The notes: generated by a model not told the origin, from the letters alone. Shown: positions 396-24,324, counted from the stretch's first letter. The stretch: DNA of 32,000 bases from Flavobacteriaceae bacterium (GCA_965224465.1 OZ245049.1:1440001-1472000); one strand, 5' to 3'. Numbers and translations are program-made.

Positions 396-424
396 TAAAA
401 AACTTAAACTTAAAATACAATCGA

Positions 425-5017: not shown

Positions 5018-5070
5018 GGAGAAAGAAACCAAACACTTTATAAATCAAACTACTACGACAGTCTGAACCT

Positions 5071-5103
5071 AAAAAAGCCTGCACTTAAAAAGTTCAGGCT
5101 TTT
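5071..5103. terminator. Bidirectional-looking terminator hairpin shared by the regulator (+) and the glp operon (-)
   Basis: Stem AAGCCTG (5075-5081) / CAGGCTT (5095-5101), with an A-run before and a T-run after. Confidence 0.5.
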
Positions 5104-5124
5104 ACAATCAAAACTGTGTAATAA

Positions 5125-5270
5125 TACCAAATACATCTACTAGTGACGGTTTAGATATAGAATTATTTTTTGTTTTAGCTAGGTAAAAAAACTAAGGATA
5201 GCCTTAGTTTTTAACAACGCAAAAACGTATAAAAACTATTTATATCGGTCCTTTTGGAGTGTAATTGGTA
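5125..5270 (-). repeat. MITE-like repeat, full-length copy (146 bp)
   Basis: Termini TACCAAATACA / TGTAATTGGTA, central hairpin CTAAGGATAGCCTTAG (5192-5207), core CTATTTATATCGG (reverse orientation). Aligns end to end with 24157-24317. Confidence 0.8.
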
Positions 5271-5285
5271 ACACACACTTCACTA

Positions 5286-5993
5286 TTAAAACAAACTAAC
5301 AGCTAACTGTACTGATGCTTGATCCAATACCATATTATACCCTAATGTAGCAGAGACTGGGAATTTTTTATCAGCAAACACAAGCGTTTTACCTACTATT
5401 AACCCGACATTGGAAATTCCAATATTCTTATCACCATACAACATCGTTTCCGCATCACCATTTAAAGCAAAAGCTGGAGAAATATAAGGCGTTACCGTAA
5501 TTTTCTCTAAACGAATAGGAAAAGCAAGGTTTACGAATGTGGAATACCTTTGAAGATCCACACCTTCTCTATCATTCCCATATATTACAGTTGCTACTGA
5601 CAAATGCATAAAGGAAAAACGATAGCCTAACTGAATATCTAAAGTATGTAACGTCTCATTTTCGTCATAATTAAAATACTTAGGATCATCTACTCCAGAA
5701 AAATTAAAGATATCCCTAAACGTCACTTCAAAGTTCTCTTTTTTATATGAAATAATATTTGTAACCTCTTTATATTTCCCATCTATACTAAGGCCTCCCC
5801 ATGCATAGGCAGAAAAATGATCTCCGAAATACCCCACTGAAGTAGCGGTCATCACAGCTTCTGTAACTCTCAAACCTCTCCAATAATGCATAGATTTAGC
5901 CTGAACGCTTAAATCAAAACGACCTTGTGACTGTACACTTGTATAGCAACATATCAATGCTATTACAAAACAAATTTTAGTATGTATTTTCAT
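5286..5993 (-). CDS. Putative outer-membrane beta-barrel protein co-transcribed with glpF
   Basis: 235 aa with a signal peptide (MKIHTKICFVIALICCYTSVQSQ), alternating hydrophobic pattern and a C-terminal aromatic residue (SLF). 10-nt gap to glpF. Confidence 0.6.
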   Translation of the reverse strand: MKIHTKICFVIALICCYTSVQSQGRFDLSVQAKSMHYWRGLRVTEAVMTATSVGYFGDHFSAYAWGGLSIDGKYKEVTNIISYKKENFEVTFRDIFNFSGVDDPKYFNYDENETLHTLDIQLGYRFSFMHLSVATVIYGNDREGVDLQRYSTFVNLAFPIRLEKITVTPYISPAFALNGDAETMLYGDKNIGISNVGLIVGKTLVFADKKFPVSATLGYNMVLDQASVQLAVSLF

Positions 5994-6003
5994 TTTTTTT
6001 AAT

Positions 6004-6738
6004 TTAAAGAATTACAGTATATAATAATGCCGCTAAAACGGTTCCGATAATTGGCCCTAGAATAGGAATCCATGCATATCCCCAATCACTTTTCCCTTTA
6101 AGAGGCAAGATTGAATGCATAATTCTCGGTCCTAAATCACGTGCTGGATTGATAGCATACCCTGTAGTACCACCTAAAGACAAACCAATTACCCATACAA
6201 GAAACGCAACAGGAATAGCCCCTACAGAACCCAGACCAATAACAGCTCCTTTATCTACAGCGATATCAATAGACGGCCCTGCAATAAAAAATATCACAAA
6301 CATCAATACAAACGTCCCTATAATTTCACTTATAATATTAGAAAACTTATTACGTATTGCTGGTCCTGTACTAAAACAAGCCAGTACTCCACCTTCATCA
6401 TCTGTGGCTTTAAAATGATCTCTATAGACAAGCCACACTAAAAACGCCCCAAGCATTGCTCCCATCATTTCCCCTGCAATATATTCTGGAACTAAGTCCC
6501 AAGACAACTTACCTGCTGCAGCTAAACCTACCGTAACAGCAGGATTTAAATGCGCACCACTATATGGCCCAGCTACAATTACTCCTACAAAAACTGCCAG
6601 AGCCCAACCTGTAGTGATAACAATCCATCCAGAATTATTACCTTTTGTTCCTTTAAGAACAACATTTGCTACAACTCCGTTTCCTAATAAAATAAGAAAC
6701 ATTGTTCCAATTAACTCTGCTATAAAAATTGATGACAT
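6004..6738 (-). CDS. glpF: Aquaglyceroporin / glycerol uptake facilitator (MIP family)
   Basis: 244 aa with two NPA boxes (HLNPAVT, INPARDLGPR). Located next to glpK. Confidence 0.95.
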   Translation of the reverse strand: MSSIFIAELIGTMFLILLGNGVVANVVLKGTKGNNSGWIVITTGWALAVFVGVIVAGPYSGAHLNPAVTVGLAAAGKLSWDLVPEYIAGEMMGAMLGAFLVWLVYRDHFKATDDEGGVLACFSTGPAIRNKFSNIISEIIGTFVLMFVIFFIAGPSIDIAVDKGAVIGLGSVGAIPVAFLVWVIGLSLGGTTGYAINPARDLGPRIMHSILPLKGKSDWGYAWIPILGPIIGTVLAALLYTVIL

Positions 6739-6765
6739 ATTTATAAATTTTGAAAATTAAATTGT

Positions 6766-8262
6766 TTATTCCTCTATCCAGTTTTGAGCACACGAAACGG
6801 CTTTCTTCCAATAATGCAACATACCCTCAATTTTTTCCAAATCATCAGAAGGTTTAAATTCACGATCTACAACCCATTGAGTTTGAATCTCTTCTACACT
6901 GTCCCAATACCCTACAGCTAAACCAGCCAAATAAGCAGCTCCTAAAGCAGTAGTTTCTAATGTTTTTGGACGTAAAATATTAAAACCAAATAAATCCGAT
7001 TGTATCTGCATTAGCAAATCACTCGCGGCTGCCCCACCATCTACACGCAATTCGATGCTCTTACCATCAAAGTCTGCCTCCATTGCTTTTACGACATCGT
7101 ACACCTGAAATGCAATTCCTTCTAGAGCAGCACGCGCTATATGCGCATCTGTAGTCCCCCTAGTTATTCCAACAATAGCACCACGCGCATACTGATCCCA
7201 ATAAGGCGCTCCCATCCCTGTTAAAGCAGGTACAAAATAAACACCTCCATTATCTTCTACAGTTTCTGCTAAGTGATTGATTCCCGGCGCCGTTTTTACC
7301 AATTTAAGTCCATCTCTAAGCCACTGAATTGCCGCACCTCCAACAAACACACTTCCTTCTAAAGCATAGGTTGTTTTTCCTTTAATTTTCCAAGCAATTG
7401 TTGTTAATAAATTATTTTTTGAATAGACTGCTTTCTCCCCTGTATTCATCAACAAGAAACATCCAGTCCCGTACGTGTTTTTTACCATCCCTGGCTTGGT
7501 ACACATTTGACCAAACAATGCTGCTTGCTGATCTCCTGCAATTCCAGAAATAGGAATTTTTGTAGAAAATAACGTTGTCGCAGTTTCTCCATAAACCTCG
7601 CTACTTTGTTTTACCTCTGGCAGCATAGCCTTAGGAATATTAAAGAGATCCAATAATTCTTGATCCCATTCTAAGGAATGAATATTAAAAAGCATGGTTC
7701 TACTCGCATTAGACACATCTGTAATAAACATTTTGCCTTGTGTAAGTTTCCACACCAACCACGTATCCACAGTTCCAAAGCACAATTTACCAGCCTCTGC
7801 TCTTTCACGCGCTCCTTCTACGTTATCTAAGATCCACTTTAACTTGGTTGCAGAAAAATAAGCATCCAACACCAATCCCGTTTTCTCCTTAATCATTTGC
7901 GCACTTCCACCAGCTTTTAATTCATCACAATACTTTGCTGTCCTACGATCTTGCCACACAATAGCATTGTACAAAGGCTCGCTAGTTTCACGATCCCATA
8001 CAATAGTTGTTTCTCTTTGATTTGTGATACCAATAGCCGCAATTGACTTTCCTGTAATCCCTTCTTTTGCTACTACTTCTGCAGCTACAGATATCTGAGA
8101 CGCCCATATTTCGTTTGGGTCATGCTCTACCCATCCTGGTTTTGGAAAATATTGTTCAAAAGATTTTTGAGAAACTTTTACAATTTCACCTTCGCGGTTA
8201 AATAAAATTGCTCTTGAAGATGTCGTACCTTGATCTAAGGCTAAAATTAATTTATCTTTCAT
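6766..8262 (-). CDS. glpK: Glycerol kinase
   Basis: 498 aa with FGGY kinase motifs ([32 protein letters not shown]). Confidence 0.97.
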
Positions 8263-8553
8263 TGTATCTAAATTTGGTTATTATGATTATCACCTTATTC
8301 ATCATAGCTTTTTTAATTAAAAAACACAAAGCACATCTATCTACAACTTACCAGAACAAACCTAACAGTATTTGCTCCATCTATTGAATGCTTCTTAAAA
8401 TGCATCCAATCCTACCTCATCACATTGTGAAAATTCTTATTTATTCCTTATAATTCTTAGAAAAGAAATTCGCAATAGGCTTTCCTATTTAACAGATGTA
8501 AATCAACTTTTTCAACTAATGAACGTCTATTCTATTACGAATTTCAAAACTCT

Positions 8554-10113
8554 TTAATTCAATATATAATTTGCTGTCACAGACTTGTATTCCTCCACTT
8601 GATCCAACACCCATGTCTCATTTTCTCCCAACTCTTTCGCCATCAACTTAGCCACAGCTGGTGCCATGCGAATACTCTCTTTAGCATCTAATAATTGACA
8701 GCGAACTCTACGCGCCAACACATCTTCTACAGTACGTGCCATTTCGTTTTTTACTGCCCATACCACCTGCGCTTTCATCACTCCTAAGACAGGGCTCAAC
8801 AATTCACTCATCCCCTCTTTTTTAGCAATTTTAAGCACTTCTTCCTTGTCTGTTCCATAAAAATGTAAGGGATCCGAACGATCCACATCTTCCATATATC
8901 CATGAATCTTCAAGTGACGCGTTTGTGACAAGGTTGTTTTCCATCCTTGATTTTTTTCTGCTTTAGATACTAAATCTTCTCCCATTTTTCTATAAGTAGT
9001 CCATTTTCCTCCTACCATTGTAAGCATCCCAGAATCTGACTCAAAAATCTTATGACTTCTAGAAATCTCTTTTGTTTTCTTTCCCTTTCCTTTTGGAGCA
9101 GCTAACGGTCTCAAACCAGCAAAAACACTTAAGACATCTTTTCTCTGTGGAGCTGTTGTTAGATACCTAGACGCAGTCTCTAATATAAATTCAATTTCCT
9201 CCTCTAAAGCTATAGGCTCTAAAGATGCATTTTTCACCAAAGTATCTGTTGTTCCAACAACTACTTTACCATACCAAGGCACTAAGAATAATACTCTTCC
9301 GTCATCCGTTTTCGGAATCATAATAGCATCATCTCCAGGCAAGAAACACTTTTCAAGCACCAAGTGAATTCCTTGACTAGGCACCATTGTTTTTTCGGCT
9401 CTTACACAATCCATTTTTAAAACTTCATCTGCAAAAACTCCTGTAGCATTCACAATCTGCTTCCCTTTTATCGCATATTCTCTACCTTCCTCCTGATCCA
9501 CAAACACAACACCTGAAGCCTGCTCTTTATCGTCTTTTATAATCCCTTCGACAGCACAATAATTCAAAGCAATCGCTCCCATTTCAGTAGCTGATTGTAA
9601 AGAGTTAATAGCAAGTCTACTATCATCAAATTGACCGTCAAAATACACCACTCCTGCAGATATTTTAGACGATTTTATGTTCGGAATCCGCTTGAGGGTT
9701 TCTTTTTTTGAGATTCGTTTAGACCTTCCTAAACTAAGTTTACCCGCTAACAAATCGTAAAATGTTAAACCGACAGTATATTGAAGCTCGTCAAACAAAC
9801 CATGGGTTGGAATAATAAACGATTGCTCACGAACCAAATGCGGAGCATTCTTTACTAACAACCCTCGTTCAACCACAGCTTCTCGCACCAGAGCAACATC
9901 TCCCTGTGCTAAATAACGGACACCTCCATGTACCAATTTTGTACTTTTACTTGATGTTGACTTTGTGAAATCTGATTTTTCCAATAACACAACAGAATAG
10001 CCCCTTGCCGAAGCCTCTAATGCAATTCCTATTCCTGTTGCTCCTCCTCCAATAATTATAAAATCATATACTTTTTCACAACTAATTTTATCAATCATTC
10101 TATTTCTATTCAT
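8554..10113 (-). CDS. glpD: FAD-dependent glycerol-3-phosphate dehydrogenase/oxidase
   Basis: 519 aa with an N-terminal FAD fold (DFIIIGGGATGIGIALEA) and KLVHGGVRYL. Glycerol gene context. Confidence 0.92.
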   Translation of the reverse strand: MNRNRMIDKISCEKVYDFIIIGGGATGIGIALEASARGYSVVLLEKSDFTKSTSSKSTKLVHGGVRYLAQGDVALVREAVVERGLLVKNAPHLVREQSFIIPTHGLFDELQYTVGLTFYDLLAGKLSLGRSKRISKKETLKRIPNIKSSKISAGVVYFDGQFDDSRLAINSLQSATEMGAIALNYCAVEGIIKDDKEQASGVVFVDQEEGREYAIKGKQIVNATGVFADEVLKMDCVRAEKTMVPSQGIHLVLEKCFLPGDDAIMIPKTDDGRVLFLVPWYGKVVVGTTDTLVKNASLEPIALEEEIEFILETASRYLTTAPQRKDVLSVFAGLRPLAAPKGKGKKTKEISRSHKIFESDSGMLTMVGGKWTTYRKMGEDLVSKAEKNQGWKTTLSQTRHLKIHGYMEDVDRSDPLHFYGTDKEEVLKIAKKEGMSELLSPVLGVMKAQVVWAVKNEMARTVEDVLARRVRCQLLDAKESIRMAPAVAKLMAKELGENETWVLDQVEEYKSVTANYILN

Positions 10114-10555
10114 GATAACTAATTTTAATGTATTTACAGTCCACCTAATTATTATCTTTCAAACATATAACAAAAAGAAATGAAACGAAAGGAAAAATAA
10201 GTTTAATTTACTGCAAACTGACGAATATCATAAAAAAAAGCTATTATTACGTCATAAAAGGAATAATTAAAAAGAAAAAGAAATACAAAGAAACAATCAC
10301 ACTCTTAAAGAAGAAATACATTCGTAAAAAAAACACAACAGCCTCAATCCAAGGGCACGAGATAAATTTCCGAAAATTCTATCCTCTATTTCGTGGCAGA
10401 GCCTCGGAAAATGAAGCCTTCAATAGGGGATTAAAAACAGCCACTATAAATATTCCTTTGAAACATTATTGACAAAACCCCCAATAAGAGATTAAATAAA
10501 AGCCATCGAACTCATCCTAAGAAAAGAAACATAGGATAGGTTTAAAAAACCAGTT

Positions 10556-11002
10556 CTACCGAAGCTTGTCTAGTATTTTATTTAAGACTTTAGCCTCTTC
10601 CTCCGATATATTATCCATACACGTAGACCTCTCCTCTATATCAATTTCATCAATTAATTGAATCCCCACATCGGTAATACCAACATAAACTACACGCCTA
10701 TCAGCATCACACCGCGATCTATGGACGAGATTCTTAGCACATAATTTATCCATCAACCTAGTCGCATTAGGAGCGCGTTCAATCATACGTTCCTTTACTG
10801 TTTGCACAGTGATTTTTTTTCCTGCCCCCAATAAAATCCTTAAAATATTATACTGCTGAATACTTATACTAAACGGCTTAAGTAACTTATTATCATGACA
10901 TTCCAACCAACTAGAAGTGTATTTAATATTGATTAACGCCTTTACTTTCTCTGAAGTAAACGTAGTATTTATATCCTTTGATATATCTCCCATAAGCCAC
11001 AA
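10556..11002 (-). CDS. MarR-family transcriptional regulator
   Basis: 148 aa with a winged-HTH core (ISIQQYNILRIL ... APNATRLMDKLCAKNLVHR ... DRRVVYVGIT). The true start may be an internal Met. Confidence 0.85.
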   Translation of the reverse strand: MWLMGDISKDINTTFTSEKVKALINIKYTSSWLECHDNKLLKPFSISIQQYNILRILLGAGKKITVQTVKERMIERAPNATRLMDKLCAKNLVHRSRCDADRRVVYVGITDVGIQLIDEIDIEERSTCMDNISEEEAKVLNKILDKLR

Positions 11003-11268
11003 ATTTAACCTATTTTACCAACCAGCAAAAGGTAGCTTTATAAAAAACTACCTTTTATACTCAAAAAAATTATTTATCAGTAACCGAAACAACTCATTTA
11101 TATCCTTTACCGTTAAAAAACAGAGCAATAACAATCGTCATCCACGCATTCAACGCTACACAAAACGAGCAATACTCACACGCTACTTAACTATACGATA
11201 GACACATGCACAATTACGCATTGAAAGATTTCCATCTAGAATACAATTTAAAAGTCACAGTCCATACA

Positions 11269-11706
11269 TTATTCATGTACTAAATGCGTTGAAACTGCAA
11301 TTCTATTCCACATATTAATAACTCCGATTAACATAATCAGTTGCGCAATTTCTAACTCGGAAAAATAGCTTGTCGCTTTTACATAGCTAGCATCTGTAAG
11401 TCCATCATTAGAAATAAGTGTCACTTCCTCGGTAATTGTAAAAGCAGCCCTTTCTTTTTCTGTAAATAATGGAGACTCTTTCCATGCAGCAATGGCAAAC
11501 AACCTTTTTTGCGTTTCTCCGTGCTTTAATGCTTCATTACAGTGCATTTCGATACAATACGCACAATTATTAATTTGAGAAGCCCTTATCTTAATCATAT
11601 CCGCCAAGCTTCCTTTTATTAACGTTGTAGCCAAATAGCTTTCCATACCGAACATGGCTTTATATGCTTTTGAGTCTTGCTCTGAAATAGTTACTCTTTT
11701 CATCAT
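11269..11706 (-). CDS. Carboxymuconolactone decarboxylase-family (AhpD-like) protein
   Basis: 145 aa with the AhpD-like CxxC motif (NNCAYCIEMH). Confidence 0.85.
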   Translation of the reverse strand: MMKRVTISEQDSKAYKAMFGMESYLATTLIKGSLADMIKIRASQINNCAYCIEMHCNEALKHGETQKRLFAIAAWKESPLFTEKERAAFTITEEVTLISNDGLTDASYVKATSYFSELEIAQLIMLIGVINMWNRIAVSTHLVHE

Positions 11707-12014
11707 TCTTTAAAATTATTGTTTTTATCATGTAACCTCACATTAAAGGACAGAGGAACTCCCTTGTATTTTATCAAAAAAAACTTTTCCAGAAATTAAC
11801 TGTATAACATTAAATAGAGATCATAGGTATCCATAAGACATGTTCTTATCCTATGTTTACAGTATCACACTTAGAAAGCATATCATTAGAAAAAAAAGGC
11901 ATCCCTATAAACACCTCCTTTATTCCTGATCAATAGATCTACATGTCAGAGAAAATTTCAATAATCATAACAAACATTCCGTATAATACACCTTAACTTC
12001 TACAAGATTTTTAT

Positions 12015-12548
12015 TTACAATGCCAATCTAAAGGTCTTCACTTTTAACAGCAATGTTGCTTTGAGAGCTTCATCTACAATATCATTATCTTTAAAATTAT
12101 CAAAAAATGATGGGAGAGAAAAATCAGCAACCACTTTGGCTCCTAAATGCGGAAAGGATGCCAATGCCGCAGCCATAACCGTAGCACCCCCTCTTGCCCC
12201 AGGAGATGTAGACAATAATAACATTGGTTTATTCTTCCAAACAGAACCATCTACCCTAGAAACCCAATCCATTACGTTTTTAAAAACAGCCGCATAAGAA
12301 CCGTTATGCTCCGCCAAAGACAACACAAAAGCATCTGTAGCAACAAACTGTTCACTTATTTTATATACATCTTTAGGAATTCCATTCTCTGACTCTTCAT
12401 CTACAGAGTACATCGGAATTTGATACTCCTTTAAATCCAAAGATTCTATTTTTATAGCATCCATCAATCCCGCTGCATAATTTGCAAATTCTTTATTGAT
12501 TGATTTTTGACTACTGCTCCCTCCTAAGGTAATAACATTCTTGTACAT
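12015..12548 (-). CDS. NAD(P)H-dependent FMN reductase-family oxidoreductase
   Basis: 177 aa with a flavodoxin-like N-terminus (ITLGGSSSQKSINKEFA) and LLSTSPGARGG. Confidence 0.8.
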   Translation of the reverse strand: MYKNVITLGGSSSQKSINKEFANYAAGLMDAIKIESLDLKEYQIPMYSVDEESENGIPKDVYKISEQFVATDAFVLSLAEHNGSYAAVFKNVMDWVSRVDGSVWKNKPMLLLSTSPGARGGATVMAAALASFPHLGAKVVADFSLPSFFDNFKDNDIVDEALKATLLLKVKTFRLAL

Positions 12549-12592
12549 TTAATTTATTTTAATAGTTAGTATCTCTATAATATACTGGCATA

Positions 12593-12645
12593 ACACCAAT
12601 TACAATTCAAAATAACCGATATAAATAGTTTATTTTATTTGTATT
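12593..12645 (+). repeat. MITE-like repeat, 5' half only (terminus plus core)
   Basis: ACACCAATTACAATTCAAAATAACCGATATAAATAGTTTATTTTA. No matching 3' terminus downstream. Confidence 0.7.
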
Positions 12646-12722
12646 TTAATTTAACAACAACAGCCCAAACACAATGACAAATTAGACTTTAAATAGCTTT
12701 CCCTCTGTAAAATACGATGTTA

Positions 12723-12848
12723 TACCAACTAAAACCCCAAATAACCGATATAAATAGTTTATTTTACGTTCTAGCGTTGTTGAAAAACAGGACGATAACT
12801 AAGGCGATCCTTCCATTTCTAAACTGTCATTTGTAAATGTGTTTGGTA
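12723..12848 (+). repeat. MITE-like repeat, complete internally deleted copy (126 bp), inserted in a DoxX-like gene
   Basis: 5' terminus TACCAACTAAAACC, core, hairpin remnant CTAAGGCGATCCTT, and 3' end CCATTTCTAAACTGTCATTTGTAAATGTGTTTGGTA. Flanked by TTA at 12720-12722 and 12849-12851. Confidence 0.8.
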
Positions 12849-13149
12849 TTAAATCCTCTGTCTGTTGACCATCACGAATCATTATATGAGTAAAAAACAC
12901 CAGTACAAATTCAAAAAACAAGACCGCGCACCCACATTTTTTTATATATGATTTCTTTTGACTTAGTAAAAAAGTCACAGTAATTAGCTTTTCAAATACT
13001 AATAGACATATCAAATACACAGGAAAATCAAAACACACAAACATCGCACGAACAGACTAGACCTCAAACACATACATTCCATAACTCAGTAATACCAAGA
13101 CACTCAACAATCCTGTAGAAATCCAATATCCAATTTTAAATATTTTCAT
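12799..13149 (-). pseudogene. DoxX-like membrane protein pseudogene: in-frame TAG at 13057-13059 and 3' end replaced by the repeat at 12723-12848
   Basis: The minus strand from ATG 13149 reads MKIFKIGYWISTGLLSVLVLLSYGMYVFEV-TAG-SVRAMFVCFDFPVYLI...VLFFEFVLVFFTHIMIRDGQQTED in one frame. It resembles DoxX-like proteins on both sides of the stop. The last 17 sense codons and the stop of the 81-aa track ORF are repeat sequence. Confidence 0.65.
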
Positions 13150-13299
13150 ATTATTCGATTTAATTACAGCGCAAAACTACATTAAAAATTTATATTTACC
13201 TAGGGAATTACCCCCATGGTTTATAATTTAACAAAAAGTAGCAAGTTTTAAACATTCACTTTTTAATTTTTGTACATTAGCCACCAATAAAATGAAGCT

Positions 13300-14928: not shown

Positions 14929-15021
14929 AGCATCAAAAAACAACAATCATAAACAATTATAAAAGCACTTGTATTAAAACTGATAAAGTTTTACTTTTAC
15001 AGGGTTAAAAAAAATAATAAA

Positions 15022-15738: not shown

Positions 15739-15764
15739 CATCTAATTTTTTATATCCATTTCAT

Positions 15765-15802
15765 AAACCCCCAACAGACGCTCTGATGGGGGTTTATTTT
15801 TT
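15765..15802 (+). terminator. Rho-independent terminator of yebC
   Basis: Stem AAACCCCCA (15765-15773) / TGGGGGTTT (15787-15795) followed by ATTTTTT. Confidence 0.75.
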
Positions 15803-15808
15803 GTGATT

Positions 15809-15874
15809 TACACCACACATTCCAAAATTACTGATATAAATAATTCCATTTCTAAACCGTATCTTAGATTGGTA
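15809..15874 (+). repeat. MITE-like repeat, minimal 66-bp copy (both termini, interior deleted)
   Basis: TACACCACACATTCCAAAATTACTGATATAAATA is joined directly to ATTCCATTTCTAAACCGTATCTTAGATTGGTA. This matches the 3' end of the full-length copies. Confidence 0.65.
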
Positions 15875-15959
15875 TTACTTGTATGAAGGTTCAAAAATAC
15901 GAAACCACACTGTGATTATATAAACGTAATAGTGCATTATTAATTATCACTTTTTTACC

Positions 15960-15967
15960 TATATTTG
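15960..15967 (+). promoter_or_regulatory. Candidate -7 box TATATTTG upstream of the RelE-like ORF
   Basis: Perfect TAnnTTTG about 90 nt upstream of the ATG at 16058. Confidence 0.25.
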
Positions 15968-16057
15968 TGAAACATGAAATAATTAAGCGCAGGTTTTCAG
16001 ACAAACTGACGTTGTAAACCATTAATAACAGGGATTCAAACGAGAAAAAAAAATAAA

Positions 16058-16366
16058 ATGCACACAATTATTTCAAGTATAGAATTTCAAAAAAAAGTAA
16101 AAAATAAATTCACTTCAAAGGAAATTGAACGAATAATTGAAATATTATCTTTAAACCCTAAATTAGGTAAGAAATTTAATTCAGTAAATAACATATACAA
16201 GTTAAACTTAGGATTAGCCGAAAACAAAAAGCAAGATTATAATTTAATTTATTGTTATCAAGGAAAAAACAAACCAATTTTTATAATTAATATTTTCAGA
16301 ACAAAAGAGAAAGATTTAATTACTAAAATAATTAATTGCTTAATAACTGAAGCTTTAGAAAATTGA
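16058..16366 (+). CDS. Hypothetical protein, RelE/HigB-2-like toxin fold suspected
   Basis: 102 aa. The pattern FQKKVKNKFTSKEIERIIEIL...LGKKF...IYKLNLG...K..YNLIYCY.....IFIINIFRTKEKDLIT resembles RelE/HigB-2 (DUF1044-type) toxins as I recall them. Very AT-rich. Confidence 0.4.
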   Translation: MHTIISSIEFQKKVKNKFTSKEIERIIEILSLNPKLGKKFNSVNNIYKLNLGLAENKKQDYNLIYCYQGKNKPIFIINIFRTKEKDLITKIINCLITEALEN

Positions 16367-16476
16367 AAATTATTACAGATGTGGAATCCGTTTAAAAAAA
16401 AAGAAAAAAACCTACGTTAATTAAATAAAATAAAAACATATAAAAATAAAGAAAAATACTTTATAAAAACATTGAA

Positions 16477-16974
16477 ATGAAATTGAAATTTAGATTTTTT
16501 AATAAAAATGACTGGAAGGAAATATCTGAAATTTATAAACAGGGAATTGAAACAAAGAATGCTACATTTCAACTTGAAACACCGAATTGGTTGGATTGGA
16601 ATAACAGTCATTTAACGAGTTGTAGAATAGTAGCGGAACTAAAGGATGAAATCGTAGGATGGTCTGCTCTATCTCCAATTTCAAATCGATGTATATATGG
16701 GGGTGTCGCAGAAGTTAGTATTTATGTCTCAAACAACTATTCAGGACAAAAAATAGGAACAAAACTTTTAGAGAAATTAATATTAGAAAGCGAAAAAAAA
16801 GGCATTTGGACTTTACAAGCAGGTATTTTTCCCGAAAACAAAGCAAGTCTTAAAATTCATAGTAATTTAGGATTTAGAAAGGTTGGATACCGTGAAAAGA
16901 TCGGGAAAATGAATGGAAAATGGAGAGATACTATTCTTATAGAAAGAAGAAGTAAGAATATAGGAATAGAATAA
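16477..16974 (+). CDS. GNAT-family N-acetyltransferase (phosphinothricin / methionine sulfoximine acetyltransferase-like)
   Basis: 165 aa with a PAT-like layout (NATFQLETP, AEVSIYV, GQKIGTKLLEKLI, GIFPENKASLKIHSNLGFRKVG). Confidence 0.85.
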   Translation: MKLKFRFFNKNDWKEISEIYKQGIETKNATFQLETPNWLDWNNSHLTSCRIVAELKDEIVGWSALSPISNRCIYGGVAEVSIYVSNNYSGQKIGTKLLEKLILESEKKGIWTLQAGIFPENKASLKIHSNLGFRKVGYREKIGKMNGKWRDTILIERRSKNIGIE

Positions 16975-17191
16975 TAACGCTCTACAACACCTAAAACCCG
17001 TCCAATACCTAGCGCCAAGGCAATAACCATAGTCTACACTATCCCCACTAAAAGAGGGCACTACAAAGATGCGTGGTATTTACTAAGAGGCAAAGCGACA
17101 GAACATTCTCTTGAACCCCATAAAACGCTTTATTCCCTCAAAGCTTTTAGACAAATTGTCTGTAGGAAAAACTGGACAACCTACCTAATAA

Positions 17192-17206
17192 TACCAATTA
17201 CAATCC
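17192..17206 (+). repeat. Solo terminus fragment of the MITE-like repeat
   Basis: TACCAATTACAATCC matches the 5' terminus of the family. The core is absent. Confidence 0.35.
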
Positions 17207-17541
17207 TCGTATTTTAACTTGTGAATTATACTATTGCAACTTGAGAGAGGAAGAAGCCAGAAATGGGAAACACAACCACAAGATATACTTCCGAAAGGCT
17301 ATTTACTATTTCAAAGCAGCGCCTTGGATAATTAAACCTCCAAAAAAAGACCAACCAATAAGGAAACAGTAAAACACACCTATGTGTTTTATACGCTAAC
17401 AATCAGCACTTAAAAACAAATATCTACGAACATTTCTCAAATACAACAAGGAAATACACGGGAATATTTTTTATATTTACAAAGATTGGTGATTTTATCA
17501 TAGCACAACTCATCTATAAATAGTGAGACAAAATTCAAAAA

Positions 17542-18126
17542 ATGAAACATAAACTTATCTGCTTATTATTTTTAGTCTCATCTAACCTTATAGTATCCCA
17601 GGTATCTGAAGATTTATTAGTTAACATCCACTCTGCTTCTAACTCTGTTATGAATACTCTAAGCCCAGACACTGGTTCAATGATATATAATACTGATTTA
17701 AAATCGGTATATATATATGATGGAACTCATTGGAAAAAGCTAAACAACAATCTTGAAACAACTTACGAAACAGTTGCTATAGGAAGAGGAAATCAAACGT
17801 TAACAGTTCGTGATGCTGATAAAATCGTCGGTTTCACCTTAATATCCAGTTATAACAGTTTATCTACAAATACAGGTAAAATGTCTGGGACTTGGATAAT
17901 TAATGAGAATCGCGACAAAATAAGATGTTATATACAAACACTAGAGCATCCATATATAAAATTCTTAGTAGTAACAGTACAAATTAAAAACGCGACAAAT
18001 ACAATAGAATTCAGTAATTACACTTCTCGATACTGGACAGTAACGATTCGCACCCCTCAAAACAACTTAAGTAATAACGGAACAAATTATCAATTAGGTA
18101 ATATAGTAATCATTAGAAAGGAATAA
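17542..18126 (+). CDS. Secreted hypothetical protein
   Basis: 194 aa with a signal peptide (MKHKLICLLFLVSSNLIVSQ). I recognise no family. Contains the motif GSMIYNTDLKSVYIYDGTHW. Confidence 0.55.
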   Translation: MKHKLICLLFLVSSNLIVSQVSEDLLVNIHSASNSVMNTLSPDTGSMIYNTDLKSVYIYDGTHWKKLNNNLETTYETVAIGRGNQTLTVRDADKIVGFTLISSYNSLSTNTGKMSGTWIINENRDKIRCYIQTLEHPYIKFLVVTVQIKNATNTIEFSNYTSRYWTVTIRTPQNNLSNNGTNYQLGNIVIIRKE

Positions 18127-18567
18127 AAAATATAAAACAAGGCTCTAGTTTAGCACTCACACCCTTTTTAAGACAGTATCATTTGAATATTGGCAATACC
18201 TAATTGAGCTTCACAATTCCAAAAAGATATATGAACATCCCAATATTTCTATGCATAGAGAACACGAATCAAAACACTCGATTTTATTAAAAAAACGAGT
18301 AAATACGTATAAATTAAGCTTCTCAACACATTAACTATAGATAAAAGTAAAACTACGATACCTTTAGATCCTGTATTTTAACATTTATTTTAGAATTCTC
18401 TATTTTTATCAAATTCATAAAATTGACAGCGTAAACAGGGGGATAAATAAGATTTACAACTAATTAAAGTTCATAAACACAGATTAAAGCGAAAACACAC
18501 TGATAATTAAGAACAGAATTAAAGAAAATAAAGCATGAAATTTGAAATGAATTCAAAAAAAGGGTGC

Positions 18568-18593
18568 TTGTAAACATTTAAAAGTTATATTTG
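18568..18593 (+). promoter_or_regulatory. Candidate cspA promoter: TTG (18568-18570) and TATATTTG (18586-18593)
   Basis: Perfect TAnnTTTG 29 nt upstream of the ATG, with a TTG 15 nt further upstream. Confidence 0.4.
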
Positions 18594-18622
18594 CATCATT
18601 AAAAAATATAAATACAATAATA

Positions 18623-18814
18623 ATGAGCACAGGAACAGTAAAATTCTTCAACGATTCAAAAGGATTCGGATTCATCACACCAGATAACGGAGACAAAGAC
18701 GTATTCGTACACATCAGCGCTTTAACTGATGAAATTACAGAAGGAGATAAAGTAAACTTCGAAGTAGAAGAAGGACGTAAAGGACCAAATGCGGTTAACG
18801 TAACGGTAATTTAA
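18623..18814 (+). CDS. cspA: Cold-shock protein (CspA family)
   Basis: 63 aa, [27 protein letters not shown] (RNP1/RNP2 motifs). Confidence 0.95.
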
Positions 18815-18833
18815 GTTTATTCTTAAAAGATAT

Positions 18834-18865
18834 AAGCCCTATCTACAATGATAGGGCTTTTTTTA
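18834..18865 (+). terminator. Rho-independent terminator of cspA
   Basis: Stem AAGCCCTATC (18834-18843) / GATAGGGCTT (18850-18859) followed by a T-run. Confidence 0.8.
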
Positions 18866-18907
18866 TGCCTAATTTTAACGGTTTTAAATATTGATAGGCA
18901 AACGAAT

Positions 18908-18995
18908 AACACCAATTACAATCCAAAATAATCGATATAAATAGTTTATTTTATTAAAACGAACCCGTTCTAGGATTTAGTTTACACCAATAGCT
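18908..18995 (+). repeat. MITE-like repeat (5' terminus, core, degenerate interior) followed by a second terminus fragment at 18983-18995
   Basis: TAACACCAATTACAATCCAAAATAATCGATATAAATAGTTTATTTTA...CGTTCTAGG, then TACACCAATAGC. Confidence 0.65.
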
Positions 18996-19010
18996 ACACA
19001 AAGGATTCAC

Positions 19011-20066
19011 CTACAAGAGTAATAGGGTACTTTTTCTATTAATTTTACCCGTAGGAGTTTCAATAAATTGCGGAATAACGTACACTTTTTTAGGGATTTC
19101 AAACTTACTTAATCGTTTAGAAGTTTTTATTTCAATCAATACATCACTTGCAACCTCCTCCACTAGTTTCTTTTTTGATTCTATCACTAAGACTACCTTA
19201 TTCCCTAATAAATCATCCGGTTCAGAAGCGATAAAAAAACGTTCAGAAATAAGTCCACTCAATTTTAACTCTAACTGTTCTGGAATCAATTTAATTCCTC
19301 CTGAATTAATCACAGAATCATATCTTCCTAGCCACTCAAACGTGTGGTCATCCAATAAATGTACAACATCATTTGTTACAATAACACGCTCCGACAACAA
19401 AGGGGCATGTATTTGCAAACAATCGCGACGGTCTAAAGAAAGCTTAATATTAGGCAGGGTTTTATAATACCTATCCTCAAGTCCATTCAATCGTTTGGCT
19501 GCAATATGCGTGATCGTTTCGGTCATCCCATAGGTTGAAAACACTTTTATAGGCAAGGTTTTTATTTTTTTTAGCAAGGTTTCCGGCACTACCCCTCCTC
19601 CAATAATTAATTGACCTATACGGTATAAATTTTCAAAACAATGATGAACTTGCAAAGGAATCATCGCCGCAAAATCATACTTTTTTTCTGTCAATTTCAG
19701 TGGATTTGATTGCACCTTTACAACATCCATATCCCAGCCCAAATACAGCGCTCTTACCAGCATCATTTTCCCTGCAATATAACCAACAGACATACACAAA
19801 AGCGCTGTAGTTCCTGCTTTTAAACTAAAGAATTCCCCTGTAGCGAATGCTGACTGAAGCATCGCACTTTTTTTAAGAAATATAATTTTCGGATCCCCAG
19901 TAGAGCCCGAAGTTTGAACTTTTAATTCCTCCGAATTATCAAACCATGCCTTTAAAAAAGAAGATACTTCTGGTAAATAATTTTCTGCATACTGTAACAA
20001 TTCCGAAGTATTATTGAACCTATTTCCATTCAATCTAAAGCTAGAATGTAATATTTCCTTAACCAT
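19011..20066 (-). CDS. menE: O-succinylbenzoate-CoA ligase-like AMP-binding enzyme (short Bacteroidota form)
   Basis: 351 aa with adenylate-forming motifs (TSGSTGDPK, YGMTET, SGGIKL). In an operon with menC. Confidence 0.75.
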   Translation of the reverse strand: MVKEILHSSFRLNGNRFNNTSELLQYAENYLPEVSSFLKAWFDNSEELKVQTSGSTGDPKIIFLKKSAMLQSAFATGEFFSLKAGTTALLCMSVGYIAGKMMLVRALYLGWDMDVVKVQSNPLKLTEKKYDFAAMIPLQVHHCFENLYRIGQLIIGGGVVPETLLKKIKTLPIKVFSTYGMTETITHIAAKRLNGLEDRYYKTLPNIKLSLDRRDCLQIHAPLLSERVIVTNDVVHLLDDHTFEWLGRYDSVINSGGIKLIPEQLELKLSGLISERFFIASEPDDLLGNKVVLVIESKKKLVEEVASDVLIEIKTSKRLSKFEIPKKVYVIPQFIETPTGKINRKSTLLLL

Positions 20067-21048
20067 CTATACCCGTACTTTTATTCTCTATTTCTAATGA
20101 TTCACTTACAAATGGATCAATTTCTAATGGTTCACTAATTTTACCTGTCAATTTTTCTTTCCAATTTCCCCAATCATATTTTTTAGAAAACACAACAAGT
20201 ACCAAAGGGTACAATACAAAAACAGGTAAGAACATACTCATTTCTACAGAAGGCTCAGAGATATCTACAAATAGAGCATCGGTTTGAAAAGCCGCCCAAT
20301 CCGTTGTTACAAATACAGCTGCCACTATATTATTTATAGCATGAAAACCCATGGATAGCTCCGTACCCTCGTCCATCAAAGTTATGATTCCCAACAAGAA
20401 ACCTGTACCTATATAGTACACCATCACAATCATTCCTAATTTCTCTACTTCTGGGTTCATCCCATGAAGCAAACCGAACATTACAGATGTCACTATTAAA
20501 GGAAACCACCTATTTTTTGCAAGTACACCAATTCCTTGCATCAAATAACCTCTAAATAATAATTCTTCCATGCTTGTTTGAAAAGGCAAAAACAAGACTG
20601 ATATAAGAACTAGTAAGGCAAATTTGATTGGTTTAAAATTCCAGACATGCATTTCTGGCGCCAACATTATCCCTATAGAAATAACCACTACAGAAATCCC
20701 TCCCCACAGCATAACTGCGAAGAAAAACCGAGACCAATCTATCTTTTTTCTTGAAGTAACCAGACTTCTTAAACTACGCTTATGGATACATTGAACACAT
20801 AAAATCAGCGTCACAATACCTGCCACAAACGACAAAATCATTAAAAACAAACTTAAATTAGCTCCTAATATACTTTGGAAGTTCCCTTTTGCAGCTGCTA
20901 AAAATTCATTGTTACTTTCTGCCATAAATTTAGCTGTAAAAAACAAAGGCAATGCCCCTATATTTACAGCAATAAACACAAGAAATAAGCCTAATATATA
21001 ATAGCCCCAATTATTCTCCCCATTAAACGCTTGTTGAATATAATTCAT
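20059..21048 (-). CDS. CPBP-family (CAAX / Abi) intramembrane metalloprotease
   Basis: 329 aa, polytopic, with the CPBP motifs EELLFRG, FGLLH and HAINN. Overlaps menE by 8 nt and lies 5 nt after menC. Confidence 0.85.
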   Translation of the reverse strand: MNYIQQAFNGENNWGYYILGLFLVFIAVNIGALPLFFTAKFMAESNNEFLAAAKGNFQSILGANLSLFLMILSFVAGIVTLILCVQCIHKRSLRSLVTSRKKIDWSRFFFAVMLWGGISVVVISIGIMLAPEMHVWNFKPIKFALLVLISVLFLPFQTSMEELLFRGYLMQGIGVLAKNRWFPLIVTSVMFGLLHGMNPEVEKLGMIVMVYYIGTGFLLGIITLMDEGTELSMGFHAINNIVAAVFVTTDWAAFQTDALFVDISEPSVEMSMFLPVFVLYPLVLVVFSKKYDWGNWKEKLTGKISEPLEIDPFVSESLEIENKSTGIDG

Positions 21049-21053
21049 AATTT

Positions 21054-22088
21054 TTAAAACTTAAAATTCCATTTATCTTTTGCTGAATATCCCAATGCAC
21101 CTTTAGAAACCTCCAATGGGCACGCTATATTATTACTATACAAAGCTCCAGTCCCCAAGCCTTGAGGCATCGAATTCCCCAATCCAAATGTCCATTGAGC
21201 TATCGCATTGAGCCCAACATTACTTTCCAAAGCAGATGTTACCCACCATTTAATATCTTGTTCTTCTGCCAAAGAAATCCATTGTTCACTCCCTTTAAAC
21301 CCACCAATCAAGGCTGGTTTTAAAATAATGTACTGTGCTTGTATTGTTTGTAGCAATTCACGCTTTTTTATTACAGAAAACACCCCAATCAATTCTTCGT
21401 CCAAGGCAATTGGCAGTGGTGTACGACTGCACAAGGAAGCCATCTCCTGCCATTGCCCTTGTTTAATGGGTTGCTCTATAGAATGCAAATCATAAGCTGC
21501 AAGTCTTTTTAATTTCTCCAATGCATTATCAGGAGAAAAAGCCCCATTGGCATCTACACGTAGTTCAATTTCTGTAGGATTAAATTCGGATCTAATATAA
21601 TGTAACAAGTCCAATTCCGCCTTAAAATCTATGGCTCCAATTTTTAATTTAATAGTTGTAAACCCTGCTTTTATTTTTTCTTTTATCTGCTGATACATAA
21701 AAGATTTACTCCCCATCCAGATCAAACCATTGATAGGAATAGTTTTTTTAGATGCCGTAAAATCGTTTTGAAACAACTCAAAAGGATGTTTACTTTCTAA
21801 TGATAAAAATGCTTGCTCTAAACCAAATTGAATGGAAGGAAATGCAGTTAACTCTTCCAATAAAACCTCTAAACCGACATAAATATGATCACAAGCCCAT
21901 TGCAATTTCTCTAAAAAAATTGGACAATCATCAATACTCAAGCCTTTAAACATATTGCATTCACCAACGCCTGTTTTCTGAGCATCCTTAATAACAATAA
22001 AATAAGTCTCTTTGGTATGTAACACTCCTCGAGAAGTTCCACTGGCACGTTTAAAATTTAAAGTATACGGTTTAAAATAAGCTTTCAT
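21054..22088 (-). CDS. menC: o-Succinylbenzoate synthase (enolase superfamily)
   Basis: Enolase-superfamily pattern (KLKIG, RVDANGAF, IEQP, ALDEEL). I prefer the Met at 22088 (MKAYFKPYTLNFK). The track ORF extends to 22115. Confidence 0.8.
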   Translation of the reverse strand: MKAYFKPYTLNFKRASGTSRGVLHTKETYFIVIKDAQKTGVGECNMFKGLSIDDCPIFLEKLQWACDHIYVGLEVLLEELTAFPSIQFGLEQAFLSLESKHPFELFQNDFTASKKTIPINGLIWMGSKSFMYQQIKEKIKAGFTTIKLKIGAIDFKAELDLLHYIRSEFNPTEIELRVDANGAFSPDNALEKLKRLAAYDLHSIEQPIKQGQWQEMASLCSRTPLPIALDEELIGVFSVIKKRELLQTIQAQYIILKPALIGGFKGSEQWISLAEEQDIKWWVTSALESNVGLNAIAQWTFGLGNSMPQGLGTGALYSNNIACPLEVSKGALGYSAKDKWNFKF

Positions 22089-22225
22089 AGAATCACATAT
22101 ACTGCAATAGTACAACTATTAAAAAAAAAATACTATTTTAGGAGGGAATTATACCAAAAACAGCACTGAACACTCGTTTTTAGACACGGTACACTATAAG
22201 GAACACGGCAGCTAACCAATACTTA

Positions 22226-22328
22226 TACCTACAATCCAAAATGACCGATATAAATAGTTTATTTTTTGTTCTAGCGTCGTTATAAAATAGAACGACAGCA
22301 AGGCTATCCTTAGGTTTTCCGCCTAGCT
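22226..22328 (+). repeat. MITE-like repeat, 5' terminus to mid-element, truncated where the next copy begins
   Basis: TACCTACAATCCAAAATGACCGATATAAATAGTTTATTTT...GCAAGGCTATCCTTAGGTTTTCCGCCTAGCT. Matches the full-length copy up to CTAGCT. Confidence 0.75.
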
Positions 22329-22332
22329 ATAA

Positions 22333-22374
22333 TACCAATTAAAATCCAAAACAACCGATATAAATAGTTTATTA
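22333..22374 (+). repeat. MITE-like repeat, 5' half (terminus plus core) abutting the previous copy and the downstream ATG
   Basis: TACCAATTAAAATCCAAAACAACCGATATAAATAGTTTATT. It ends 19 nt before the ATG at 22393. Confidence 0.7.
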
Positions 22375-22392
22375 GTTTTAAAAATTACTATT

Positions 22393-23295
22393 ATGCACAT
22401 ACCTGAAATACCAAATTTAATCTTATACGCCGTTCCTTTTTTCGTGGTTTCCGTACTAATAGAAGGGCTTATAATTTTCAAAAAAAGCCCTGAAAACTTC
22501 ATATTCAAAGACTCCATAACCTCTATTGTCATGGGATTCGGAAATTTACTTATAGGCATTATTTCAAACATACTGGCTGTTTTCATCATCAGCTATTTGT
22601 ATGAGAATTTTAGACTTACAGAAATCCCTTTTACTTGGTGGGCATGGATACTTATTTTATTTTCGGACGATATTTCTTATTATTGGTTTCATAGAATCTC
22701 ACATGAGTCACGTTTTTTCTGGGCCTCACATAGCATTCATCATTCTTCACAAAAATACAACCTAAGTACTGCTTTGAGACAAACTTGGACGGGCAATTTT
22801 TTTAGTTTTATTTTTTTCTTAGCGCTTCCTATTATTGGTTTTCATCCTTTGATGATTTTCACACAAATGTCTGTGAGTTTATTATACCAATATTGGATAC
22901 ACACCGAGCTGATAAACAAAATGCCTAAATGGTTTGAAGCAATCTTTAACACACCTTCACATCACCGTGTACATCATGGCATTAATCCAATATATTTAGA
23001 CAGAAACCATGCAGGTATTTTTATTATTTGGGACAAACTATTTGGCACTTTTCAAGCAGAACTTCCAAAAGAAAAAGCAATCTACGGATTGGTTACCAAT
23101 ATTAAAACTTACAATCCTATTCGTGTTGCATTTCACGAATGGTTTCTGTTATTCAAAGATGCATTTGGCAGTAAAACATCTGTATTAAACCGCGTAAAAT
23201 ATTTTATCAAACCTCCTGGATGGAAACATGATGGAACGAGTGTATTGTCCGATGATTTACGTAGAGAATGGTTAAAAAAGAACACAAAAACGTAA
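22393..23295 (+). CDS. Fatty acid hydroxylase / sterol desaturase-family membrane protein
   Basis: 300 aa with histidine boxes HRISHE, HSIHH and HHRVHH, and several TM segments. Confidence 0.85.
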   Translation: MHIPEIPNLILYAVPFFVVSVLIEGLIIFKKSPENFIFKDSITSIVMGFGNLLIGIISNILAVFIISYLYENFRLTEIPFTWWAWILILFSDDISYYWFHRISHESRFFWASHSIHHSSQKYNLSTALRQTWTGNFFSFIFFLALPIIGFHPLMIFTQMSVSLLYQYWIHTELINKMPKWFEAIFNTPSHHRVHHGINPIYLDRNHAGIFIIWDKLFGTFQAELPKEKAIYGLVTNIKTYNPIRVAFHEWFLLFKDAFGSKTSVLNRVKYFIKPPGWKHDGTSVLSDDLRREWLKKNTKT

Positions 23296-23298
23296 CCA

Positions 23299-23979
23299 TT
23301 ACACTTTCAAACTATCTCCAATAGGCAGTAAGTGTAATTCTTTATGATCTTTTGCAAATTGTTCTTGGGCTTTCTGGTGATTAATTTTAATATACCCAAA
23401 TGTATCGTAATGATACCCTAAAATGGTATTACATTCTAAGAAATCCGCAGCAATTACGGCTTCTTTTACTCCCATGGTAAAATTATCACCTATGGGTAAA
23501 ATTGCTAAGTCCAATGGGCCTACAAGTCGTGGAATTAATTTCATATCATACGTTAATGCGGTGTCTCCCGCAATAAATATACTGTGATGACTTGTCTCTA
23601 TAATAAACCCTCCTGGCTGCCCTCCATAGCTACCGTCGGGAAAAGAACTTGAATGGATTGCGTTTGTATAATGTACACGTCCAAAATCAAATTGCCAACT
23701 CCCTCCATGGTTCATAGGATGTCCTTTCAATCCTTTCTTTTCAAAATAATTAATAATTTCAAAATTAGAAATTAAGGTAGCACCAGAATTCTTGGCAATA
23801 ATTTCCACATCTAAAATATGGTCTTCATGCGCATGTGTAATTAAAATATAATCGGGCTTTAAACTATTCACATCTATATGTGATGCCAATTGATTCCCCG
23901 TAATAAAAGGATCTACTAAAATAATTTTATCCTTTGTTTCTATCAAAATAGAGGCATGCCCCAAGTATGTTATCTTCAT
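23299..23979 (-). CDS. Metallo-beta-lactamase-fold hydrolase (UPF0173-like)
   Basis: 226 aa, MKITYLGHASILIE...ITHAHEDH motif. Confidence 0.85.
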   Translation of the reverse strand: MKITYLGHASILIETKDKIILVDPFITGNQLASHIDVNSLKPDYILITHAHEDHILDVEIIAKNSGATLISNFEIINYFEKKGLKGHPMNHGGSWQFDFGRVHYTNAIHSSSFPDGSYGGQPGGFIIETSHHSIFIAGDTALTYDMKLIPRLVGPLDLAILPIGDNFTMGVKEAVIAADFLECNTILGYHYDTFGYIKINHQKAQEQFAKDHKELHLLPIGDSLKV

Positions 23980-24096
23980 ATATTTACAGTTCTAAACCAA
24001 TCCTATCTACGTTTTCAAATTCATAATTAATTATAAAATGACTGTCTAAAAATTCGTTTGACATAATTGACCCTTCTAAAATACAAAAAATTACAT

Positions 24097-24129
24097 AAAA
24101 AAGCCACGGAAATCCCTAATTTCCGTGGC
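24097..24129 (-). terminator. Rho-independent terminator of the TonB-dependent receptor gene
   Basis: Stem GCCACGGAAAT (24103-24113) / ATTTCCGTGGC (24119-24129), with a T-run on the minus strand (A-run 24097-24102). Confidence 0.7.
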
Positions 24130-24156
24130 CAAACAAACAATTTCTTAAATACTTAT

Positions 24157-24317
24157 TACACCAAATACATTTCCAAGTGACGTTTTAAAAATGGAATTAT
24201 TTTTTATTTAAGCTAGATGGAAAATCTTAGGATAGCCTTAGCTATCATTCTGTTTTTCAATAACGCTAGAACGTAAAATAAACTATTTATATCTGTCATT
24301 TTGGATTTTAATTGGTA
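24157..24317 (-). repeat. MITE-like repeat, full-length copy (161 bp)
   Basis: Termini TACACCAAATACATTTCCAAGTGAC ... GTCATTTTGGATTTTAATTGGTA (about 26 nt imperfect inverted repeat), hairpin CTTAGGATAGCCTTAG, core CTATTTATATCTG. Confidence 0.8.
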
Positions 24318-24324
24318 TTAGTTA

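Follow-up and report, generated by a model that had tools for sequence, protein, structure and literature searches.

We analyzed a stretch of 32,000 nucleotides from a Flavobacteriaceae bacterium (GCA_965224465.1 OZ245049.1:1440001-1472000, hereafter the window) and found that it contains 11 pieces of a 159-bp repeat at unrelated loci. This repeat is very probably a non-autonomous DNA transposon, that is, a MITE (miniature inverted-repeat transposable element). The original prediction, made from the sequence of the window alone, had already proposed a mobile element of this kind, which is now backed by copies at non-orthologous sites in other genomes, by empty sites and by a target-site duplication. 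The small non-coding unit, whose size falls within the ~50-800 bp of prokaryotic MITEs, is dispersed in copies that have terminal inverted repeats and a 3-bp TWA (TTA or TAA) target-site duplication. Insertions are polymorphic and lineage-specific, one of them disrupts a gene, and copies decay by deletion.

Both the exact ends of the element and its 3-bp TTA/TAA duplication could be recovered. The duplication is perfect, with the W position matched on both sides, in five copies. Flanking triplets read TAA/TAA for the copy at 24159 (in element orientation) and for two copies outside the window (L002 and L006; designations of this type refer to loci outside the window), and TTA/TTA for the copies at 12723 and 15811. 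Two of the three positions agree in L001 (TTA/TTG) and L013 (TGA/TAA). On the strand analyzed, the TTA duplicated around 24159-24317 occupies 24156-24158 and 24318-24320, and 15811-15874 is likewise flanked by TTA (15808-15810 and 15875-15877). The TAA duplicated in L002 doubles as the stop codon of the open reading frame (ORF) upstream. Within the window, TTA or TAA directly precedes 10 of the 12 left ends, fragments included. With a duplication of 3 bp, the two ends of the element are symmetric, each starting with [T/C]ACCAA. Other duplication lengths were rejected: 2 bp (TA) because it makes the two ends asymmetric, and 5 bp (TATTA), hinted at by the 24159 site, because it is unsupported at other copies. 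A TWA target accounts for the presence of copies in AT-rich spacers, often 0-15 nt from a stop codon, and also inside earlier copies.

Comparison with related genomes reveals both filled and empty orthologous sites, in both directions. Among named organisms, the best relatives of the window proteins are from Lutibacter (70-74% amino acid identity). Closer relatives (~80% amino acid identity) are encoded in North Pond metagenome-assembled genomes (MAGs, designated Flavobacteriaceae bacterium) and on TULL18 metagenome scaffolds. Via neighbouring proteins, we reached syntenic loci on TULL18 scaffolds (L008, L009, L011 and L016, ~70-82% nucleotide identity in genes) and in the MAG NORP129 (L010 and L013, 76-86% nucleotide identity). 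In the syntenic loci (five contigs, ~80 kb of distinct sequence), a profile hidden Markov model of the long copies, run with nhmmer, detects no more than a single full copy and a single fragment, neither of them at a site occupied in the window.

The site of the full-length copy 24159-24317 is empty in NORP129, where L010 6694-7530 corresponds to window 23300-24158 and L010 7526-9799 to window 24316-26589. The empty site reads AAATACTTAATA/GATATTAAAATC (in short form ACTTAATA/GATATT), and the filled site AAATACTTA[TTA]CACCAAAT...AATTGGTA[TTA]GTTATTAAAAAC (in short form ACTTA[TTA]CACC...GGTA[TTA]GTTATT). When the element and one TTA are taken out, the length of the empty site is restored exactly. 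A 226-bp block with several pieces of the repeat (22152-22377) is missing in L008, L010 and L011; alignments end at window position 22151 and restart at 22378, and the spacer in these relatives is 75-81 bp long. The copy 18910-18980 is missing in L008 and L011, and homology with L010 stops at window position 18895 to restart at 19012.

The copy 12723-12848, missing in L013, L014 and L016, disrupts a gene. A doxX-like (DoxX_2) pseudogene (~13149-12849, minus strand) carries it in its 3' part. In a tblastn comparison with the intact 119-amino acid protein of NORP129, the pseudogene has 52% identity and an in-frame stop at codon 30, and it is cut by the element at residue ~101 of 119, with the ORF 12799-13044 as its remnant. 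Read on the gene strand, the relatives have ...TTATTAATATCGTATTTTACAG at the junction, and the window has ...TAA(TACCAAAC...GTTGGTA)TAACATCGTATTTTACAG, with the element in parentheses.

The reverse case is found in NORP129, which carries a full copy (L013 17636-17794) 15 nt past the stop codon of isocitrate lyase. The same site is uninterrupted in the window and in L016 (CGATTGTAT[A/T]TTAAGTTTAAG). NORP129 also has a solo right-end fragment (L013 16214-16261) between malate synthase and isocitrate lyase, in a spacer of 159 bp as compared to 77 bp in the window. Altogether, reciprocal insertion polymorphism between the window and the NORP129 or TULL18 contigs was seen at four sites. Such reciprocal presence and absence points to independent insertions in each lineage, and it rules out a conserved regulatory sequence.

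Further copies are present at sites that are not orthologous to any in the window. A pattern scan of species-representative genomes gave at least seven loci among the matches listed, of which four were true and three were due to chance (in Mycoplasma, Clostridia and Bacilli). Full copies among these matches belong to the MAGs NORP150 (L001), NORP129 (L002) and NORP167 (L003 and L006), and the four loci share nothing with the window except the repeat. The nine long copies are 81-91% identical in pairwise comparisons and do not cluster by genome. As this is about the nucleotide identity of genes between the window and NORP129 (76-86%), the family predates or spans the lineage split, with insertions after it in both.

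The complete unit of 159 bp is AT-rich and has imperfect terminal inverted repeats of ~26 nt. Its left end is [T/C]ACCAATTA[A/C]AATCCAAAATGAC (extended form [T/C]ACCAATTA[A/C]AATCCAAAATGACCGATATAAATAGTTTATTTTACG), and its right end GTCACTTGGAAAT[G/T]TA[A/T]TTGGT[A/G] (extended form AATAATTCCATTTCTAAACCGTCACTTGGAAAT[G/T]TA[A/T]TTGGT[A/G]). In condensed form, the termini are [T/C]ACCAAWTAMA...TKTAWTTGGT[A/G], with [T/C]ACCAATTAMAATCC...TTGGT[A/G] outermost. A conserved subterminal sequence lies inside each end, and the left module (~45 nt) contains a 14-mer, GATATAAATAGTTT, which is invariant in the nine long aligned copies and in three 5'-end copies. The original description of the anatomy stands: the inverted termini are imperfect and complementary over ~26 nt, ending in GTGAC/GTCAC, a central hairpin CTAAGG-ATAG-CCTTAG is present, and shorter copies are derivatives, produced by internal deletion or by truncation. 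The derivatives have lengths of 126, 146, 104, 64 and ~45 nt; the one at 15811-15874 consists of the left 30 nt and the right 34 nt, which meet at an AAATA microhomology. As also predicted, no ORF fits inside the element (none of at least 80 amino acids is contained in a copy). Overlaps with copies are limited to ORFs that enter from outside, namely the doxX remnant and 22323-22589, which has no Pfam match.

A subfamily variant was identified in NORP167 (L003, ~170 bp) and on a JGI metagenome contig (L012). It has an extra segment of ~23 nt directly after the invariant AATAGTTT, possibly a remainder of a longer parent element.

Inside the complementary outer ~26 nt, weaker symmetry continues further inwards, so that either strand of the unit folds into a single long hairpin over its full length. 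The original prediction had named a dispersed structured-RNA repeat as the alternative to a mobile element. According to this explanation, the repeat would be a structured RNA or cis-regulatory element (a stabiliser in the 3'-untranslated region (3'-UTR), an attenuator or a small RNA family), conserved through hairpin folding of the transcript. In fact, the 159-nt copies all fold over their entire length into a single hairpin (z-scores of -2.7 to -6 for the six full-length copies), and each full copy has 13-21 of its first 25 nt paired with its last 30 nt. Of the two strands, the reverse complement was the more stable one in each of the eight copies tested. A number of copies are situated between stop codon and terminator and would be co-transcribed, and the invariance of the 14-mer could be explained by an RNA as well.

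We nevertheless consider an RNA origin highly improbable. The hairpin is a consequence of the inverted-repeat architecture and not evidence for a selected RNA. RNAalifold on seven copies gave -2.13 kcal/mol, near zero, with an unfavourable (positive) covariation term, and the single compensatory pair (of 24 pairs) was located in the inverted-repeat ends. Copies point either way relative to neighbouring genes, and one is found inside a pseudogene. Orthologous sites are empty in relatives, and target-site duplications are not expected of an RNA gene. No known Rfam family covers the element: the whole window had zero matches at the gathering score, and a full copy, searched with E-values of up to 10 allowed, had only chance-level matches (E 0.8-5.7) that scored far under the gathering scores. 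Neither a Flavo-1 nor a Bacteroides motif was found in the Rfam searches of the window and the full copy, and a tRNA/tmRNA scan of the window detected none. The bias in strand stability amounts to 4-20 kcal/mol in 24159-24317, L001, L002, L006, L013 and 5125-5270 and is consistent across these copies; because of their shared ancestry, they are not independent evidence for a selected RNA strand.

Repeat detection on the 32-kb window returned direct and inverted families (D1-D4, D9, D10 and I1-I15) at exactly the loci of the original prediction, and the family was confirmed at every one of them (Table 1). The 18-nt core CGATATAAATAGTTTATT has 7 matches in the window with up to 2 mismatches, versus 0 in 100 shuffles, which excludes chance as the source of the repeat family. 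For the terminus 14-mer, also with up to 2 mismatches, 6 matches were found in the window against 0.44 expected; the fragment 17192-17206 is among them. Some details had to be revised. The longest copy, predicted to span 161 bp (24157-24317), is at the expected locus, and its ends are now placed at 24159 and 24317, with the TTA duplication outside. The list of loci was correct and incomplete, as the weak copy 26856-26896 has to be added. All loci had been called intergenic, which does not hold for 12723-12848. A possible reversed end at ~22151-22195 was not borne out; the segment there (22152-22225) is left-end-like, has the same (+) orientation as its neighbours in the 226-bp block, and resembles the left end of the L013 copy. 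The copy 12594-12645 is 96% identical to the 18910 copy across 50 nt, and a possible degenerate right end, TTTGTATTTTAAT, lies downstream of it.

Table 1. Pieces of the 159-bp repeat in the window, and the extra segment of the subfamily variant.
Position	Strand	Feature	Support
5125-5270	-	146-bp copy, 12 internal nt deleted	nhmmer E 5e-43
12594-12645	+	5'-end copy of ~50 nt, preceded by TAA	repeat family D1; nhmmer E 3e-7
12723-12848	+	126-bp copy, internal deletion of ~33 nt	nhmmer E 5e-37
15811-15874	+	64-bp minimal derivative, both ends kept	repeat families D3 and I6; nhmmer weak, E 0.02-0.16
17192-17206	+	solo left terminus of 15 nt, TACCAATTACAATCC, preceded by TAA	exact terminus match; repeat family D10
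18910-18980	+	5'-end copy, clear homology over ~47 nt, then diverged; preceded by TAA	nhmmer E 5e-8
22152-22225	+	degenerate left-end-like segment, TACCAAAAACAGC..., preceded by TTA	first part of block 22152-22377
22226-22329	+	104-nt copy without right end, preceded by TTA	nhmmer E 2e-34
22333-22374	+	left end of 42 nt, at a TAA inside copy 22226-22329	nhmmer E 4e-7
24159-24317	-	full-length copy of 159 bp	nhmmer E 7e-49
26856-26896	+	weak, degenerate left-end copy	repeat family D1, sixth member, 68%; nhmmer E 0.06-0.09
L003 4826-4850; L012 ~2130-2154 (-)		extra segment of the variant, GCCAAATCAGGTTGAGCACAAT / CGGCAATCGAGTTGAGTACATGG	

The ORFs of the window encode housekeeping functions (isocitrate lyase, malate synthase, the glycerol genes glpF, glpK and glpD, the beta subunit of propionyl-CoA carboxylase, yebC, menaquinone-pathway genes and a TonB-dependent receptor). 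The full-length copy follows the stop codon of the gene for the TonB-dependent receptor (24325-26643, minus strand) and precedes a conserved intrinsic terminator (24130-24102, minus strand). The receptor gene is shared with NORP129 (L010 7535-9850) and is not found in the TULL18 loci L008 and L011; the element adjoins only the window gene. Next to the copy, a non-coding stretch of 83 bp (24078-24158) is much better conserved than the genes around it, with 89-95% identity in L008, L010 and L011. Its strong intrinsic terminator has the sequence GGCCACGGAAATTAGGGATTTCCGTGGC and then a run of T.

Breaks in synteny are found at several other copies. The genes on either side of the copy 5125-5270 are convergent, and the copy marks the left edge of a glycerol-utilisation island of ~5.5 kb. 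The island (5017-10555) comprises genes for a 235-amino acid protein of unknown function, the aquaporin GlpF, glycerol kinase and glycerol-3-phosphate dehydrogenase, and is not present in the syntenic loci L013 and L016. In these island-free loci, the gene for a helix-turn-helix regulator is followed by pirin (L013) or directly by a MarR gene (L016). The minimal derivative 15811-15874 follows directly on the yebC terminator, at the point where relatives cease to be homologous (in L013, the alignment stops at window position 15801). The copy 18910-18980 is at a synteny breakpoint downstream of a cold-shock-domain gene. In NORP129, this cold-shock gene is separated from the AMP-binding gene by a gene for a 468-amino acid VWA-domain protein (L010 472-2163). 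At its position, the window has just 116 bp (18896-19011), mostly made up of the 18910-18980 fragment, so that another synteny break coincides with a copy. The left end 22333-22374 stops 18 nt upstream of the ATG of a fatty-acid hydroxylase gene (22393). Near the start of the window (227-408), we also noted a tandem duplication of 141 bp with two copies of the isocitrate-lyase terminator AAAACACCTCAAGGTATTGAGGTGTTTT, of which L013 and L016 have one. Among the ~100 nt between the terminator copies is AAACGAAAACAATCCTTAAAAAAAATG, whose faint resemblance to the left end of the element is not significant by profile.

We infer mobilisation in trans. A transposase encoded elsewhere in the genome would bind both element ends and insert the element at TTA or TAA trinucleotides with a 3-bp staggered cut, leaving the flanking TTA/TAA duplication. 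Given this target, insertions would accumulate in AT-rich spacers, near TAA stop codons or terminators, and occasionally in genes or older copies. After insertion, internal deletion at short microhomologies and truncation would give rise to the shortened forms. Duplications of TTA/TAA (3 bp) typify the IS5 group (IS1031, ISL2, IS427) and the PIF-Harbinger lineage, where the eukaryotic MITEs are the Tourist elements. Judged only from this duplication, the transposase may be a DDE enzyme of the IS5/PIF-Harbinger kind, an assignment that we make tentatively and at somewhat less than even odds. As the original prediction had stated, the window contains no transposase, and Pfam detected no transposase domain in its ORFs.

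A different mode of spread, via single-stranded hairpin intermediates, would apply if the repeat were a REPIN or REP element moved by a RAYT (IS200/IS605-like, Y1) transposase. The long imperfect palindrome that makes up the whole unit, able to form a hairpin in single-stranded DNA or RNA, and the many, mostly extragenic copies would fit. However, elements of Y1 transposases make no target duplication, in contrast to the 3-bp duplication with matched W in five copies described above. REP/RAYT systems have a short GC-rich REP stem and a conserved GTAG-type head, whereas the element found here is AT-rich, forms one long hairpin and has neither feature. As no RAYT or Y1 transposase gene was found in the window either, we regard a REPIN origin as very improbable.

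The abundance of fragments could alternatively suggest that copies arose independently, as solo ends left in situ by a full-length insertion sequence. Many copies are indeed left ends of 15-50 nt only (12594, 17192, 18910, 22333 and 26856), and no parent element was seen, so that these short pieces may have decayed from longer elements. This explanation is hardly credible, since unrelated sites in four genomes have one and the same 159-bp unit, joined internally in the same way. The shared internal sequence implies that the short form arose once and then spread.

Several observations weigh against a MITE, or at least against an active one. The duplication is degraded at one of the long copies, 5125-5270, which is flanked by TGT/TTA and has no recognisable duplication. 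There are no near-identical pairs of copies (81-91% identity), so that current activity is unproven. Several copies are located at synteny breakpoints, a location that might indicate involvement in recombination instead of simple insertion. Finally, no autonomous element with matching termini was found in ~200 kb of related loci, when pairs of termini 0.7-2.5 kb apart were considered. Scans of viral contigs for the core and for either end gave 0 matches, as did blastn of the element against plasmids. A metagenome scan identified the one non-coding variant copy in L012, with no transposase nearby.

As to effects on the host, it is plausible by analogy with Correia elements and other MITEs (PMC10969869) that copies act as co-transcribed 3'-UTR hairpins (for example 24159-24317), displace a promoter region (that of the hydroxylase gene) or promote recombination at breakpoints. 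A more specific role is conceivable for the left module, which might be a portable, co-opted cassette (a promoter, a protein-binding site or one arm of a 3'-UTR hairpin); alternatively, the family might be moved by a type of transposase not yet linked to MITEs in Bacteroidota. Both possibilities seem unlikely to us. Co-option of the left module would explain why solo left ends survive at four or five sites in the window, why a left end is found 18 nt upstream of the fatty-acid hydroxylase start with the native upstream region displaced, and why copies are 81-91% identical where genes are about 75-86% identical. When Bacteroidetes-type promoter boxes (TAnnTTTG) were looked for by eye, the best candidates matched only 6-7 of 8 positions.

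The element shares properties with several known systems. Tourist-type MITEs and the PIF/Harbinger and IS5 (IS1031, ISL2, IS427) groups are similar in that elements are short and AT-rich, with terminal inverted repeats and a 3-bp TWA duplication. IS5-family ends start with GG, unlike the termini of the element (TACCAAT...), and no IS5-family transposase with such ends was found. A likeness in style to ERIC and Correia elements, noted in the original prediction, was upheld and extends to RUP. Correia elements (CREE/NEMIS) of Neisseria are also ~100-160 bp long, have terminal inverted repeats of ~26 nt, and exist in full-length and internally deleted forms. They are mostly intergenic and often co-transcribed as a long hairpin, and their partner transposase is unknown (PMC10969869, PMC3184786). 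They differ in having a TA duplication instead of 3-bp TTA/TAA and in belonging to another phylum, a distinction by description and not by alignment of the consensus sequences. With another duplication, unrelated sequence and a different phylum, the element is not a member of the Correia, ERIC or RUP families.

Within Bacteroidota, the MITEs of Porphyromonas are the only individually characterised ones according to a 2024 review (PMC10969869). MITEPgRS and BrickBuilt of Porphyromonas gingivalis resemble the element in being intergenic and non-coding with inverted-repeat ends. They differ, by description only, in that they occur in Bacteroidales rather than Flavobacteriales, and BrickBuilt is a composite with a minisatellite. 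MITEs as a class are to be expected in these bacteria, because a census from 2024 automatically predicted thousands of candidates in Flavobacterium and tens of thousands in Bacteroidota (PMC11602168). The clusters in this census are computational and, in the passages available to us, named ends, a duplication or empty sites are not reported for any single family (PMC11602168). A named or described MITE family of Flavobacteriaceae was not found in the literature. The 159-bp repeat represents a previously undescribed MITE family, set apart from the census clusters on the basis of these passages and not by sequence comparison.

The 159-bp family leaves the understanding of how MITEs work unchanged. 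MITEs are under-annotated in bacteria, and for this Flavobacteriaceae family, a consensus, exact ends and a TWA target are now defined. Spacers that carry the repeat can be masked or annotated correctly, and local synteny breaks and the disruption of one gene are explained. The insertions provide polymorphic markers for population studies and strain typing of this subseafloor and marine lineage, and the termini offer a handle for tracing the responsible transposase.

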